Assembly: GCA_905479545.1 (NCBI GenBank)
Contig: CAJQNE010000435.1
Location: 1-26,354 of the forward strand
Length of the DNA: 26,354 bases
Direction of reading: 5' to 3'
Origin: an uncultured Gammaproteobacteria bacterium
GTDB lineage: Bacteria; Pseudomonadota; Gammaproteobacteria; CAJQNE01
In this document: positions 13,716 through 18,643 of the stretch, piece after piece
Numbering within the stretch: position 1 is the first letter of the stretch
Layout: every line of letters starts with the position of its first letter
Position numbers and translations under genes: made by a program
Notes under the pieces: model-generated
What the model was told of the DNA's origin: nothing
What the model saw: only the letters and a program-made list of their open reading frames with translations
The model's database searches: none

Positions 13716-14759
13716 TCACGGGTTCCCTTGAGTGTTTTTGCGAAATTCACTCGGGTTACTGCCAACGTGAGTTCGAAACGCCCGAATGAAATTACTAGTG
13801 TCAGAATAGCCTAGCTCTTGAGCGATTCGGGTAACGGATAGGTGCGTTGTGCTCAATAGTTCTTTGGCCTTGCGGTGACGTTCTTCAACGCAGAGGGAGC
13901 GGTAGACTAGTCCTTCTCGCTTTAAATGGCGGTGGAGGGTGCGGCTGTTGACGTTCAAAGTGGCCGCTAATTCTTCAATGCTTGGCAAGCCATCGTTGGA
14001 GTCCCGCAGCATCATTCTGGTCCAATCACCAACTGTGCCGTTAGTGACAATTCGCTGCATCAACTCCCGGCAACGTTGCTCGGCGATCATTAGAGAAGCG
14101 TTGTTCGACATTGCGGGTTTACCATTCAATATCGATATTGGGTAAACCAGCCGCACGCCGGGGTAGGGTAATGCGGCAAAGTGAACCTGAACCCTTGGTA
14201 ACAGTTGCTCGTATCGGCTTTTGTGTGGCGGAGCGGGGATTGAAAGCTCCATTACGTAAGGTGGTAGCTGCCCCTGCACGAGATCTTTGATGCTCGTGTG
14301 AGCTGCCAGTGCTACCAGCTCGATATTGAAGTCCAGGCACTCGGCCGACATAGCCATGGTAGATGAAAAATCTAACTCCACCTTGTCATCGAGAACGCTA
14401 TAACGCATTCGAAAAGCCGGAAAAACCAGCCGGAAAAAACGCGTGATAAGCCTCAGGGCGTAGTCAATACTCGGGCTCGATAACACCCCGTAACCAACGG
14501 CGGCGTGGTCGCCCATATAAATTCTTCGACCCATTTCTAGCGGTACGGCTTGCCCGCCAATTTTGATAATGCAGCTGACAATTCGTTCAAGTTCTGCGAC
14601 GCCCAGCTCAGCCAGAGGGTCGGCTAACTTTGCGGGTGATATGCCCGCTGTTTCTAAAACCTCCTCGGCGTTAATTCCCTGGCTGGCCAATAACCTCGGC
14701 AGCCCGGCGTAATAGCGGGCTGGCACGGTAGTCTGGAAATGGCCGTCTACTCTTGTCAT
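13716..14759 (-). CDS. AraC family transcriptional regulator (long N-terminal ligand domain plus C-terminal HTH)
   Basis: C-terminal SRTLHRHLKREG...IAQELGYSDTSNFIRAFR AraC signature. It is divergent from ferredoxin-CYP153. Confidence 0.93.
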   Translation of the reverse strand: MTRVDGHFQTTVPARYYAGLPRLLASQGINAEEVLETAGISPAKLADPLAELGVAELERIVSCIIKIGGQAVPLEMGRRIYMGDHAAVGYGVLSSPSIDYALRLITRFFRLVFPAFRMRYSVLDDKVELDFSSTMAMSAECLDFNIELVALAAHTSIKDLVQGQLPPYVMELSIPAPPHKSRYEQLLPRVQVHFAALPYPGVRLVYPISILNGKPAMSNNASLMIAEQRCRELMQRIVTNGTVGDWTRMMLRDSNDGLPSIEELAATLNVNSRTLHRHLKREGLVYRSLCVEERHRKAKELLSTTHLSVTRIAQELGYSDTSNFIRAFRTHVGSNPSEFRKNTQGNP

Positions 14760-14789
14760 GTAATGACAGTATCAAGTCTGAAAATGACA
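14754..14789. promoter_or_regulatory. Candidate AraC-regulator boxes: AATGACA direct repeat with 21-bp period, plus TGTCAT-GTA-ATGACA palindrome over the AraC start codon
   Basis: AATGACA at 14762-14768 and 14783-14789, and TGTCAT at 14754-14759. Confidence 0.45.
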
Positions 14790-14832
14790 ATCAATCGCCT
14801 TGAACACGTCGGATACTGGTGACGCTGTACAA

Positions 14833-14868
14833 ACCAATAAGTGGGCCAATAACTGGACTAATAAGTCG
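14833..14868 (+). repeat. Three tandem 12-bp direct repeats upstream of the ferredoxin RBS
   Basis: ACCAATAAGTGG / GCCAATAACTGG / ACTAATAAGTCG. Confidence 0.8.
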
Positions 14869-14886
14869 AACTGCGAGGTGGACAAA

Positions 14887-15207
14887 ATGGTAAATATCGA
14901 GTTTATAGAGCACGGCGGGGATGTGCATAAGGTTAGCGTTGAATCTGGTGAGAGCCTTATGGAGGCTGCGGTATCCAATGCGGTGCCGGGCATTGACGCG
15001 GATTGTGGTGGTGCCTGTGCTTGCGGCACTTGCCACATAAAAGTGGCGAGCGAGTGGCGTGATCGGGTCAATCCACCCGATGACAGTGAGTCGATGATGC
15101 TGGACATGACTCCTGAAAGAGAAGAGGGCTCCAGGCTCGCCTGTCAAATTATCGTGAACTCTGAGTTAGAAGGGCTCGTTGTCGAACTTCCTGAATTTCA
15201 AATGTAG
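14887..15207 (+). CDS. fdx: 2Fe-2S ferredoxin (putidaredoxin/adrenodoxin type)
   Basis: ADCGGACACGTCH and SRLACQ Cys motifs. RBS GAGGT precedes the ATG at 14887, which is preferred over the tracked start at 14800. Confidence 0.95.
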   Translation: MVNIEFIEHGGDVHKVSVESGESLMEAAVSNAVPGIDADCGGACACGTCHIKVASEWRDRVNPPDDSESMMLDMTPEREEGSRLACQIIVNSELEGLVVELPEFQM

Positions 15208-15235
15208 TTAAACGCTCACATTAGGAGAGATCCAC

Positions 15236-16510
15236 ATGACATTTACCACAACACTAACAAGTCCGGAATTGCCGAATCCATATTCTGTGCCGTTGGAATC
15301 AATCGATTTAAGTGATCCACGCTTATATGAGCAAAATAAATGGGGCGATTATTTTCGGCGGGTACGAGATGAAGCGCCGGTTCATTACCAGAAAGATAGC
15401 CCGTTTGGTCCTTTCTGGTCGGTGACTCGTTTTGAAGACATCGTAGCGGTAGACACGAACCACAATGCCTTCTCATCCGAGCCATTTATTATTATCGGCG
15501 ACCTTGATCCGGAATTGCCGCTGGAACAATTTATTTCTATGGACCCGCCGAAGCACGATGTGCAGCGTGCTGCGGTTCAGCCAGCGGTAGCTCCGAAAAA
15601 TCTCAAGCAACTGGAGGGTTTAATTCGGGAACGTATCGTCACGATATTAGACGAGTTGCCACTGGATGAGCCGTTTGATTGGGTTTCTAAAGTCTCTGTC
15701 GAATTAACCTCGCAGATGCTGGCGACTATTTTTGATTTCCCCTATGAGCGGCGGCATAAACTTCCGTACTGGTCCGATATTGCAACAGCGGCGCCGGAGA
15801 TTTCCGGCGGCGGGGCATCAAAAGAAGAGCGTTTTGCTGCACTGGGTGACATGGTGAATTCGTTCGCCGAAATATGGCACCGCAAGGCGGCTGAGCGGGA
15901 GGCTGGTGAAGAATTGGGTTTTGATCTGATAGGTTTGCTGCAGGCCGACGAGAACACCAAGGACATGATCGACAAGCCGGCTGAATTCCTCGGTAACTTA
16001 GGTTTGCTGATTGTTGGCGGTAACGACACGACGCGTAATTCGATTTCCGGCAGTGTTGTGGCAATGAATCAGTTTCCTGAAGAGTTTGAAAAGCTAAAGC
16101 AAAACCCTGAACTGGTTGCGAACATGGTGTCGGAAATTATTCGCTGGCAAACACCGCTTGCCCATATGCGTCGGGTTGCCACTGAGGACATTGAGCTGGG
16201 CGGTCAACAAATCAAGAAAGGCGACAAGGTTGTCATGTGGTACATCTCGGGCAATCGGGACGAGCGAAAGGTCGAAAACCCGGACAATGTGATAATCGAC
16301 AGGAAGAACGCTCGCCATCACCTCTCATTTGGCTTCGGTATTCACCGTTGTATGGGCAATCGGCTCGGTGAAATGCAGTTACGCATTACCTGGGAAGAGC
16401 TTCTGAAGCGCTTCGATCGTATCGAAATAGTGGGCGACCCGGTGCGAATGCAGTCCAACTTCGTGCACGGCTATGCCTCGATGCAGGTTAAGGTCTCGGC
16501 TAAAAAGTAG
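15236..16510 (+). CDS. cyp153: Cytochrome P450, CYP153 family (terminal alkane/fatty acid hydroxylase)
   Basis: RBS AGGAG. GPFWSVTRFEDI, FISMDPPKHDVQR, LLIVGGNDTTRNS, RWQTPLAHMRR and the heme motif FGFGIHRCMG. Confidence 0.93.
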   Translation: MTFTTTLTSPELPNPYSVPLESIDLSDPRLYEQNKWGDYFRRVRDEAPVHYQKDSPFGPFWSVTRFEDIVAVDTNHNAFSSEPFIIIGDLDPELPLEQFISMDPPKHDVQRAAVQPAVAPKNLKQLEGLIRERIVTILDELPLDEPFDWVSKVSVELTSQMLATIFDFPYERRHKLPYWSDIATAAPEISGGGASKEERFAALGDMVNSFAEIWHRKAAEREAGEELGFDLIGLLQADENTKDMIDKPAEFLGNLGLLIVGGNDTTRNSISGSVVAMNQFPEEFEKLKQNPELVANMVSEIIRWQTPLAHMRRVATEDIELGGQQIKKGDKVVMWYISGNRDERKVENPDNVIIDRKNARHHLSFGFGIHRCMGNRLGEMQLRITWEELLKRFDRIEIVGDPVRMQSNFVHGYASMQVKVSAKK

Positions 16511-16680: not shown

Positions 16681-18285
16681 CTATCGCGCCGCATTGATGG
16701 ATGCCTGAGCGAGGCGCACGGTAGGGCTGTTCGCCGGGTCAAACACCACGTCGTCCATTGCGACGATTACATCAGAGAGCCACTTACCGCCGCTGGCAGA
16801 TTCTGCCAAGGCTACCGCCACGTAACGGCGACCGTCGCGTTCGACGATTGCGCCATCAGCGTGATAATTACGCCAGCTGCCGGATTTACGGAAAATGCGT
16901 GAGCCGGGCCGGGCATTCAGGCCTTTAACGAACTTGTGATTGATGCCCGGGTTGCCCAGCATCGTTTTCATCTCACGACAGGCCTCAGGCGAAACCAATT
17001 GGCCGGTTTCTAACATGTAGAAGTAGCGCGCCACCTGTACTGCCGAGGCACCGTGAGAAATGTTGTGTAACGGGTCGCGCTGTTGCGGGCCGCTTTTGGC
17101 GTAACGCTTACCCACCCACAGTCCACCATCAAATTTCGGGTCGTATAGCTTATAAGTGCTAGAACGGAGCAAGGCGTTCAGGTCTTTCATGCCGACTTTA
17201 TCGAGCATGTTGGTAGCCGCTGTGTTCGATGAGCGACGGATCATGCTGGTCAGCTGGCGACGATTCTCCGGCGTGAGCGAAAGCTTGCCGTCATGAATTT
17301 TTTGGAACGCGCCCAGCAAAATCGCGATTTTCGGCAAGCTGGCGGCGTAACGCATTTTCTCGCCATTTATTTCTGCCAACCGCGGCCGGTGGGAGTCAGT
17401 AATGTCGACCAGTGCGACGCTAAGCTGGCCGCTGTTTAAAGCGGATTTCAGCCCGATGCGGTGGAGAGAGGCTTCCAGAGCCGCCTGTAATTGCCGGTCG
17501 TGGGTCTGACGCAGTTCCGGGTATTGGTCATAAACGTCTCCGGCAAACGTATCACTCTGCAAATAGGCATCGCTGTCGATAATTTGCGGATCGACTACCG
17601 ACGGCACATCATGCAGTAGCGCGATATCGAGGTTCGGATTGGCTAGCACGGCACTGGAGCCAAAGGTGAGGGCCGTGCCGAACGCCGCTGCGGCCAGCTT
17701 GCGTTGCAACTTCAGTGAGCGGTTTATTTGGCGCTGATTCACCAAGCCTTTTTCGCGCAGAATAGTACCCAGCGGTTGGCCGGTTTTACGCTGCACTCGC
17801 AACGCTTTCTTCAGTTCTTTCTTGCTCAAATCACCGTGCTCTACCAGTAAATCACCCAGCCGCATACCGGCAAGCTTGCGGGCACTGATATCCGGCGCGT
17901 GCTCTACCTCTAAACAGGTAATTGCCCGGCCGCGATCAATATAACCTGCACTTAGAAGCGCCCGTACCCAGCTGAGGGTAGAGCGGGGTTTGCTTGCTGA
18001 AACTTTGCGTAATTCATATGACGAGATCTGGCCGGAACGTAATAGCCGTTCGCCGATATCTTCATCATCGTTCGCGGCAATAGCCAGCGCCTGCTCGCGC
18101 GACTCCAATACGTGCTGAAGACGATGCAGCGAATCACAAACCTGTTGGTCTATAACACCGCGCTGCACGAGTATTTCCGAGAGGTGCCTATTCGTACCGA
18201 TTTGCACTTCAAGCGCAGCATCAACGTCTTTGCGTGTTGCAAAACCGCCGTCTACTAACAGATCACCTAAACGTCTATGGAACAT
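16681..18285 (-). CDS. Fusion of three MshEN-like c-di-GMP-binding modules, an internal signal-like segment and a class A beta-lactamase-related serine hydrolase domain
   Basis: RBS GAGGT. MshEN-type 24-aa motifs at aa 5-28 and 142-165/171-194. Hydrophobic RKLAAAAFGTALTFGSSAVLA at aa 195-215. SxxK (S316-LP-K319), SSN (352-354) and KSG (467-469). Confidence 0.88.
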   Translation of the reverse strand: MFHRRLGDLLVDGGFATRKDVDAALEVQIGTNRHLSEILVQRGVIDQQVCDSLHRLQHVLESREQALAIAANDDEDIGERLLRSGQISSYELRKVSASKPRSTLSWVRALLSAGYIDRGRAITCLEVEHAPDISARKLAGMRLGDLLVEHGDLSKKELKKALRVQRKTGQPLGTILREKGLVNQRQINRSLKLQRKLAAAAFGTALTFGSSAVLANPNLDIALLHDVPSVVDPQIIDSDAYLQSDTFAGDVYDQYPELRQTHDRQLQAALEASLHRIGLKSALNSGQLSVALVDITDSHRPRLAEINGEKMRYAASLPKIAILLGAFQKIHDGKLSLTPENRRQLTSMIRRSSNTAATNMLDKVGMKDLNALLRSSTYKLYDPKFDGGLWVGKRYAKSGPQQRDPLHNISHGASAVQVARYFYMLETGQLVSPEACREMKTMLGNPGINHKFVKGLNARPGSRIFRKSGSWRNYHADGAIVERDGRRYVAVALAESASGGKWLSDVIVAMDDVVFDPANSPTVRLAQASINAAR

Positions 18286-18643
18286 TTACGACCTCACAAT
18301 CCCACCGATGGCAGAAAATTAAGCAAGTGAGCATTTTAGCATATCGCTGAAATTCGTATAGCTATGCTCAGAGGTTGAGTGTCGTCGGTATTAAGCACAG
18401 CGGGGCATCGCTTGGCTAGCATTGTGTCAGCGGTCAACTTCAGAATCGTTTAGCAGTTCAGGTACCAGTGTTTACGTCGCAACATATAAATGTTGTCGGC
18501 TTGGCTTACTCTCTTTCGGTAGTGCGGCGTTTCAATCTCTCCTGTGATTTAGCTGCCATGGGTAAGTTATAACCCTGCGCCAGCCTGTTAGGCGGATTTT
18601 TGTGGTGGGCTTCGCGGGTACAGTGTGAAGTCCCGCGTGTCGA

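Follow-up and report, generated by a model that had tools for sequence, protein, structure and literature searches.

Can a single polypeptide connect cyclic di-GMP (c-di-GMP) in the cytoplasm with an enzyme acting on the cell envelope? This question is raised by one gene on contig CAJQNE010000435.1 of an uncultured gammaproteobacterium (assembly GCA_905479545.1), the 26,354 nucleotides (nt) of which are the window analyzed here. To our knowledge, almost all known c-di-GMP effectors act inside the cytoplasm, and the only well-characterized path to the periplasm (LapD/LapG) relies on unrelated domains and a separate protease. The gene encodes a protein of 534 amino acids (aa) in which three MshEN-type modules are followed by a hydrophobic helix, a spacer, and a serine hydrolase domain (Table 1), and we found this MshEN-hydrolase fusion to be real and rare. 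The reading that we prefer, and to which we attach roughly even probability, is that the hydrolase, which resembles penicillin-binding proteins (PBPs), is tethered in the periplasm by a helix of N-in/C-out orientation, and that the membrane-proximal MshEN module binds c-di-GMP on the cytoplasmic side.

The N-terminal region was compared with NCBIfam NF053729, the profile of the MshE-related c-di-GMP motif (53 positions, curated cut-off 38 bits). Module 3, the membrane-proximal one, matched the entire profile (1-53/53) with 58.1 bits (E 5.5e-16), and module 1 matched it through aa 5-49 (profile 1-45/53) with 43.7 bits (E 1.8e-11), both above the cut-off, while the middle segment, module 2, scored 11.6 bits (E 0.18) and fell below it. 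The half-sites were then scored against the relaxed 24-residue motif from the Methods of Wang et al. 2016 (PMC5013675), and this revealed 0 mismatches for the first half-site of module 1 (aa 5-28) and 1 mismatch for each of the half-sites of module 3 (aa 142-165 and 171-194, with a 5-residue spacer between them), that is, three half-sites with at most one mismatch versus 0.012 expected per shuffled 200 aa. The second half-site of module 1 (aa 34-57) has more than 3 mismatches, with H34 and S36 in place of [RKPN] and G and the Leu positions lost, and in module 2 both half-sites (aa 76-99 and 105-128) are at chance level with 3 mismatches. A phmmer search matched aa 141-197 with 5HTL, the MshE domain in complex with c-di-GMP (E 1.5e-5), and with Thermus PilF, in which all three GSPII domains were aligned (E 1.9e-13). 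The original prediction, which had placed a tandem MshEN consensus at aa 142-194, a second module at aa 5-57, and a degenerate third at aa 76-128, was thus upheld on all three points.

Module 2 aligned in register with the MshEN modules in a profile-profile comparison (hhalign probability 96%, E 3.6e-9), and in the AlphaFold (AF2) model it forms a helical unit like the other modules, with a predicted local distance difference test score (pLDDT) of ~90. It is a true, though degenerate, homologue of MshEN modules and probably a structural, non-binding copy. As judged from the motifs, the array would comprise one complete predicted c-di-GMP site (module 3), one half-degenerate copy, and one degenerate copy. 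The term "triple receptor" used in the original prediction is therefore an overstatement. Pfam PF05157, the full MshEN/T2SSE_N domain, which consists of a helical bundle plus a C-terminal alpha/beta subdomain (~145 aa in all), had no match in the 534-aa protein; because of this, and because the modules, ~53 aa each, are joined by short linkers and aa 1-215 are modeled as helical throughout, we regard the N-terminal region as a predicted minimal MshEN_N array rather than a full T2SSE_N domain.

Conservation among the 12 fused proteins that we recovered (see below) bears on whether module 3 senses anything. These proteins are only 36-57% identical across the module 3 region, yet the predicted contact positions are invariant, the invariant residues of the module being L143, G144, L146, L147, G151, L162, L172, L176, G180, and Q194. 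Contact positions held constant in 12 diverged relatives while their surroundings vary, an NF053729 score well over the curated cut-off, and the EAL gene adjoining one relative all argue against the notion that the modules do not sense and are a mere cytoplasmic anchor or oligomerization domain holding an extra copy of the hydrolase at the inner membrane. We judge such a non-sensing role to be fairly improbable, while recognizing what speaks for it: two of the three modules are degenerate, the hydrolase domain of the window protein sits on a long branch, and module 3 itself deviates at Pro171, Asp152, and Arg177. Pro171 stands at the start of motif II, where Arg would be expected, and is permitted by the published relaxed motif; Asp152 and Arg177 occupy normally hydrophobic positions. 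Non-binding MshEN/GSPII copies are also documented, as in PilF GSPII-A, where a non-Arg residue at the first position of motif II abolished binding (PMC12002112).

At the other end of the protein, the hydrolase domain matched Pfam Beta-lactamase2 (PF13354) with 76 bits (cut-off 22). An alignment of 35 family members, this protein among them, contained 72 invariant columns, which include the SxxK, SSN, and KSG motifs that had been read from the sequence at the outset as those of a beta-lactamase/PBP fold; the spacing from the Ser to the SxN motif is 36 residues. When aa 254-520 of the model were compared with solved structures, the best match was PBP-A of Thermosynechococcus elongatus (2J7V; VIA-align Z 28.0, root mean square deviation [rmsd] 2.4 Å over 233 residues; Foldseek E 2e-9), followed by class-A-like proteins (Z 24-27) and DD-peptidases (Z 18-20). 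PBP-A and its class-A-like homologues (2J7V, 8EO5, 4HES, and 4EWF; Z 28 to 26, rmsd 2.4-3.2 Å) share SxxK, SxN, and KxG with the domain at an identity of only 15-20%, and PBP-A is a DD-carboxypeptidase/endopeptidase (PMC11189452). No NCBIfam family matched aa 196-534, bla_class_A (NF033103) did not match the whole protein, and a sequence-profile search of the hydrolase family against all solved structures returned nothing at E ≤0.001. The loop at the omega-loop position carries invariant residues specific to the family, namely, G387-K393 (GGLWVGK), R403-D404-P405, and S410-H411 (RDP..SHG); in the sequence comparisons, no residue could be assigned to the position of the omega-loop Glu166. These data indicated that the enzyme is a serine hydrolase of the penicillin-binding/beta-lactamase fold, not a recognizable beta-lactamase.

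As to the substrate, distant members of the hydrolase family are fused to Amidase_3, AmiA-like, Peptidase_M15/VanY, and LysM_OapA domains, and since relatives are joined to amidase, VanY/M15, and LysM-like domains, peptidoglycan peptide stems are, by analogy, the most likely substrate class. The earlier suggestion of an action on peptidoglycan or beta-lactams accords in its first half with the nearest structure being the DD-peptidase PBP-A, and its second half finds no counterpart in a class A beta-lactamase profile match. Fusion proteins observed in this family are P0160, P0202, P0234, P0247, and P0133; in P0160, both hydrolase paralogues of the gene module described below are contained in one chain.

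The domain is 55-65% identical to stand-alone secreted family members of ~300 aa and, on sequence grounds, belongs to this widespread family. Because of this identity, and because all residues invariant in the secreted enzymes are kept, the outer domain has the appearance of an enzyme and not of a specialized sensor. The same observation counts against signaling in the opposite direction, in which periplasmic acylation by a beta-lactam or a muropeptide, as in BlaR1/MecR1, would be signaled inward to the MshEN modules and alter a partner or c-di-GMP binding. The sensor domains of BlaR1 and MecR1 do occur among the structural matches (Z ~17), and the single-pass architecture would suit them, but the protein has no cytoplasmic output domain and a disordered spacer would be a poor signal conduit, so that we hold this outside-in arrangement to be very unlikely.

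How the two halves are joined is central to our reading. The hydrophobic maximum of the protein is aa 197-215 (Kyte-Doolittle 1.58), with Arg-Lys before it and AVLA at its end. On a Hessa-type hydrophobicity scale, which gives approximate values here, the segment sums to +2.4 kcal/mol and those of the fused relatives to +2.4 to +6, compared with +3.5 ± 2.4 kcal/mol for the cleaved signal peptides of the stand-alone family. A segment with the look of a Sec signal peptide about 195 aa inside the protein, as first noticed, is thus present, and its hydrophobicity lies in the signal-peptide range of the family. The stand-alone relatives have ordinary N-terminal signal peptides at the equivalent place; because of this and of the basic residues preceding the helix, an N-in/C-out topology is predicted, in which the N terminus should be cytoplasmic and the hydrolase periplasmic. 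Two other kinds of signal were considered and rejected: a Tat signal, since twin Arg residues are not a constant feature of the junction (RK, RR, KQ, RQ, KR, and QR occur), and a lipoprotein signal, since the protein has no lipobox Cys.

In other respects, the segment differs from a signal peptide. L197, A201, and G203 are invariant in the fused proteins and A205 is nearly so, and Ala plus Gly make up 52% of the fused hydrophobic segment versus 25% of the stand-alone signal peptides. In fused forms, the catalytic YAASLPK follows the end of the segment at a median distance of 95 aa, compared with 67 aa in stand-alone ones (Mann-Whitney p 1e-6, computed on relatives that are not independent), the spacer being ~28 aa longer in the former. 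The AlphaFold model of this protein (mean pLDDT 88.7) has a continuous helix over aa 184-215, a disordered spacer over aa 226-252 (pLDDT <50), and a globular hydrolase after it, and that of the one-module relative P0007 (mean pLDDT 88.9) shows the same succession, with the helix at aa 48-73 and the disordered spacer (pLDDT <50) at aa 73-97. In two independent models, then, the last MshEN helix (alpha-4) is predicted to run unbroken into the membrane segment. The junction conforms to L-[KR]-[LIM]-Q-[RKQ]-[RKQ]-L and is conserved, also in another protein family, whose outer domain is different. The conserved residues, the Ala/Gly richness, and the longer spacer favor a retained helix plus tether over a plain cleaved signal, and the spacer (aa 217-252) is, as modeled, likely a flexible tether.

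These features have to be set against export gated by c-di-GMP. According to this alternative, the segment is a cleavable internal signal peptide, folding of the MshEN pro-region gates access to Sec, and cleavage at about A216/N217 frees a soluble enzyme. We know of no case in which a ligand gates the use of an internal signal peptide. What recommends it is a hydrophobicity (+2.4 to +6, on the approximate scale) inside the family's signal-peptide range, small residues at -3/-1-like positions past the helix in all fused forms, the location of the segment exactly where stand-alone relatives carry their signal peptide, and the tight ligand binding through a compact helical bundle reported for MshEN_N (PMC5013675). 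Against it are the specific conserved residues and the Ala/Gly-rich make-up, both unlike signal peptides, a longer spacer that a cleaved enzyme would not need, and the fact that AxA-like sites are likely to arise by chance in an Ala-rich sequence. We therefore regard gated export as unlikely but still of appreciable weight.

A more mundane explanation would be that the fusion is an artifact, that is, two genes joined by misassembly or frameshift, or a hydrolase translated from an internal start. The window belongs to a fragmented metagenome-assembled genome (MAG; 3.5 Mb, 82% complete, 543 contigs), and a TTG codon is found at Leu193. This codon is the sole start-like codon near the hydrophobic segment and, like the ATG at Met141, lacks a Shine-Dalgarno sequence, so that no credible internal start was seen before the hydrophobic segment and the hydrolase as a separate product was rejected. 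By contrast, the ribosome-binding site at the annotated ATG is good, and the in-frame TAA directly 5′ of this ATG (position 18285) rules out a longer N-terminal form. The same in-frame architecture, with one to three modules, recurs in 12 protein clusters from independent assemblies, and the amino acid sequences of the N-terminal modules show conservation. Thus, the initial view of one protein with no separate internal start was substantiated, and an artifact is so improbable as to be nearly negligible.

Next, we asked how widespread the fusion is. Among 5.8 billion proteins clustered at 90% identity, ~12 clusters have the full architecture, with three modules in 4, two in 4, and one in 4; module 3 is the only module common to all of them, and it is present together with the junction in every fused cluster. 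An exhaustive hidden Markov model search of 1.84 billion 50%-identity representatives assigned 282 clusters to the hydrolase family (E ≤1e-30), of which only 3 match both halves. Of 400 genomes sampled evenly from the same class, only two contained a fused hydrolase: the window's genome, which is the sole member of its order among the species representatives examined, and G252. The best named matches of a housekeeping protein encoded near the fused gene are from Gammaproteobacteria MAGs, at ~50% identity. One fused relative comes from a Spongiibacteraceae MAG, as revealed when an alignment of three sequences was searched against genome contigs (no other match), and a single-protein search of the genome contigs for related loci found no match. 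P0150 was rejected as an MshEN relative, being a coiled-coil protein despite a seeming N-terminal profile match.

In the tree of hydrolase domains, 11 fused proteins group with the stand-alone paralogue of the window's genome (Shimodaira-Hasegawa-like approximate likelihood ratio test [SH-aLRT] support 94), and the window protein falls outside, on its long branch. The approximately unbiased (AU) test rejected neither a single clade of all 12 fused proteins (p 0.275) nor one of the 12 plus the stand-alone paralogue (p 0.587). The tree and the AU tests are compatible with one or several origins of the fusion.

The gene neighborhoods place the hydrolase in a functional setting. On 3 unrelated contigs, the stand-alone ~300-aa hydrolases adjoin genes for a TLC-type carrier (~425 aa), a larger Beta-lactamase2 protein (~425 aa), and a dikinase-like PPDK_N protein (~980 aa). 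The small hydrolase, the second hydrolase, the exported dikinase-like enzyme, and the TLC-type carrier constitute a conserved four-gene module. Signal-peptide-like N termini on the dikinase-like protein and the larger hydrolase of the module suggest that the ATP-grasp-type PPDK_N enzyme may be exported. PPDK_N proteins of ~960-980 aa with such N termini also adjoin fused hydrolase genes (L031:11724-14612 and L001:12152-15100). Fused genes take the small-hydrolase position of the module in 3 lineages (P0002, P0011, and P0276). A further fused gene, P0004 (two modules), is separated by 248 nt from genes for a hybrid histidine kinase (HisKA-HATPase-REC-Hpt) and a REC-EAL protein that precede it on the same strand, and this neighborhood (L030:3871-7753) is possibly a local c-di-GMP circuit.

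The window departs from this pattern. The hydrolase has the family signature in its sequence (ASLPK, SSN, and KSG type), and in the window it is not adjacent to the module genes, which adjoin fused relatives elsewhere and, in the window's own genome, the paralogue on contig C390, a stand-alone protein of 324 aa that bears a signal peptide, is 55% identical, and holds the module position. On this contig (L005/L010), a TLC-like gene of 429 aa (L005:40-1329, plus strand) is convergent with the stand-alone hydrolase gene (L005:1402-2376, minus strand), and a fragment of the larger Beta-lactamase2 gene is present. The dikinase gene of the module was not found in the genome's assembly, where the only PPDK_N match, on contig C93, is PpsA-like. 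The fused gene is the sole MshEN-motif match in the genome, in which GGDEF domains give 15 matches. An MshEN ATPase of the PilB/MshE type was not detected in the 82%-complete assembly.

The N-terminal part also occurs without the hydrolase. P0121 and an open reading frame (ORF) of G117 (L019:1078-2256, minus strand) are 37% identical over their full length and have three MshEN modules, an LKLQRKL-type junction, and a hydrophobic helix, followed by a different C-terminal domain of ~140 aa that is beta-rich and without a Pfam match. This recurrence with another kind of outer domain suggests that the MshEN-plus-helix unit may be a portable cassette and its design modular. A more far-reaching version holds that c-di-GMP decides the fate of the internal signal-like segment (anchor, dimer, or cleavage and release), the unit being a portable inside-out cassette that controls the delivery of periplasmic proteins. 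If this were true, its cargo would be one hydrolase of the dikinase/TLC module and, in the second family, an unrelated beta-rich domain. We consider that version speculative and rather doubtful.

Returning to the tethered, c-di-GMP-binding hydrolase, we infer the following scheme, including ligand binding and the direction and means of regulation. The protein would be a bitopic inner-membrane protein with its N terminus in the cytoplasm and its C terminus in the periplasm. The cytoplasmic part would be a stack of three small MshEN-type four-helix modules, of which module 3 (aa 142-194) would provide the complete c-di-GMP pocket and extend its last helix into the hydrophobic helix, and a flexible spacer of ~35 residues would tether the PBP-A-like hydrolase in the periplasm. 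The hydrolase would then represent a membrane-anchored, c-di-GMP-coupled version of the secreted enzyme that partners the dikinase-like protein, the second hydrolase, and the TLC-type carrier. Binding of c-di-GMP at module 3 may alter the packing or oligomeric state of the Ala/Gly-rich membrane helix, or recruit the protein to a partner, and thereby set where and how much the tethered hydrolase acts on its envelope substrate. Oligomerization or helix packing is a plausible output because the small-residue pattern of the helix is conserved; alternative outputs could be recruitment to the carrier of the module or protein stability.

Several of the observations weigh against this scheme. Module 3 departs from the consensus as described above, most pointedly at Pro171 in view of PilF GSPII-A. 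The helix is no more hydrophobic than the cleaved signal peptides of the family, and its AVLA end is signal-peptidase-like, so that stable anchoring is not assured. Catalysis is unlikely to be under direct allosteric control, given the disordered spacer that lies between the helix and the enzyme. The dikinase/TLC gene context hints at a substrate other than ordinary peptidoglycan, the fused gene in the window's genome stands apart from that module, beside a ferredoxin-P450 pair, and all relatives of the fused protein are from metagenomes.

To better illustrate what is new, the protein was compared with known systems. Like MshE of Vibrio cholerae (5HTL) and PilF of Thermus thermophilus, to both of which module 3 aligns, it is built on the 53-residue helical bundle with two motifs. 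Like PilF, it has three consecutive copies that are not all competent, in its case as judged by sequence; in PilF, c-di-GMP is bound by only two of the GSPII domains, the third being inactivated by substitutions at motif II positions 1 and 3 (PMC12002112). Unlike these proteins, which carry the MshEN_C alpha/beta subdomain and a cytoplasmic secretion ATPase, the fused protein has neither, and its output would be a periplasmic hydrolase. NfrB profiles were the next-best matches to modules 1 and 3. NfrB of Escherichia coli is a c-di-GMP-activated glycosyltransferase with a C-terminal MshEN domain and, like the fused protein, places an MshEN domain on an inner-membrane enzyme for an envelope polymer. 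Each of the two is the sole MshEN protein found in its genome (for NfrB, PMC8669469). The catalytic and MshEN domains of NfrB are both cytoplasmic, which makes direct allostery possible, whereas in the fused protein sensor and enzyme would lie across the membrane from each other, connected by one helix and a flexible spacer.

LapD/LapG offers a parallel in concept only, with no sequence or domain relationship. In Pseudomonas fluorescens, cytoplasmic c-di-GMP controls a periplasmic hydrolytic activity via a membrane-spanning receptor (PMC3032553 and PMC3032545). LapD, which sequesters a separate protease, combines two membrane helices with a HAMP domain and a degenerate GGDEF-EAL pair, while the fused protein has MshEN modules and an enzyme in one chain with a single helix; domain scans of the 534-aa protein found no GGDEF-EAL pair, HAMP, or LapG-binding domain of the LapD type. 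Compared with the stand-alone small hydrolase of the dikinase/TLC module, which has a plain signal peptide, the window's copy has the MshEN and membrane-helix N terminus instead.

The founding MshEN paper reported that MshEN is often joined to uncharacterized domains (PMC5013675), and neither that paper nor a literature search across 8.4 million full texts yielded a description of MshEN combined with a beta-lactamase-fold or other periplasmic hydrolase, in keeping with the first impression that the architecture had not been characterized. The novelty lies in how the parts are combined, with an MshEN module set against a single helix and an enzyme outside; the MshEN_N family, the PBP-A/class-A-like fold, and c-di-GMP action across the membrane (LapD/LapG) are known. 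If our reading is true, it would mean that c-di-GMP reaches the envelope by a second and simpler route, within a single polypeptide. It would also be the first regulatory clue for the widespread, uncharacterized dikinase/two-hydrolase/TLC module: because at least 3 lineages have one of the hydrolases of this module under a predicted c-di-GMP sensor, the data suggest that it is part of a sessile/motile or envelope-remodeling program. Because the fusion is rare and cultured hosts are lacking, its immediate impact is limited.

Table 1. Features of the fused gene and its flanks, in window coordinates.
Feature	Position	Strand	Basis
Whole gene: MshEN x3, hydrophobic helix, spacer, serine hydrolase	16681..18285	minus	Single 534-aa ORF and translation; relatives of full architecture
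Start context: GAGG at 18292-18295, 6 nt before the ATG at 18285; in-frame TAA at 18286-18288	18286..18295	minus	Sequence reading
MshEN module 1 (aa 5-57)	18115..18273	minus	NF053729, 43.7 bits, profile 1-45/53; motif scoring
MshEN module 2 (aa 76-128)	17902..18060	minus	NF053729, E 0.18; hhalign 96%; helical model
MshEN module 3 (aa 142-194)	17704..17862	minus	NF053729, 58.1 bits, profile 1-53/53; phmmer
Junction and predicted hydrophobic helix (aa 195-216: RK, Ala/Gly-rich helix, AVLA end)	17638..17703	minus	Hydropathy, AF2 models, conservation
Spacer (aa 217-252), variable among relatives	17530..17637	minus	pLDDT <50 for aa 226-252
Serine hydrolase, class-A-beta-lactamase/PBP-A fold (aa 253-520)	16726..17529	minus	PF13354, invariant motifs, structure match
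SxxK motif (S316, K319)	17329-17340	minus	Alignment of 35
SSN motif (S352-S-N354)	17224-17232	minus	Alignment of 35
KSG motif (K467-S-G469)	16879-16887	minus	Alignment of 35
15-bp GC-rich hairpin between the gene and the convergent P450 gene	16615..16648	no strand	Sequence scan

Finally, the immediate surroundings of the gene were examined. An intergenic gap of 358 nt lies upstream, in which a promoter scan of the minus strand found no sigma-70-like site, the counts being not above those of shuffles. An Rfam scan found no riboswitch or other RNA element 5′ of the gene, and its weak sub-threshold matches all center on the downstream hairpin listed in Table 1, which is likely a bidirectional terminator. 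The neighbors in the window encode an AraC regulator, a ferredoxin, a P450, small ORFs, and HD, YdjM, and M20 proteins. At 13716-16510, the AraC-family regulator gene is divergent from those for a 2Fe-2S ferredoxin and a cytochrome P450, the latter pair being convergent with the fused gene, and this layout resembles that of hydrocarbon-hydroxylase clusters.

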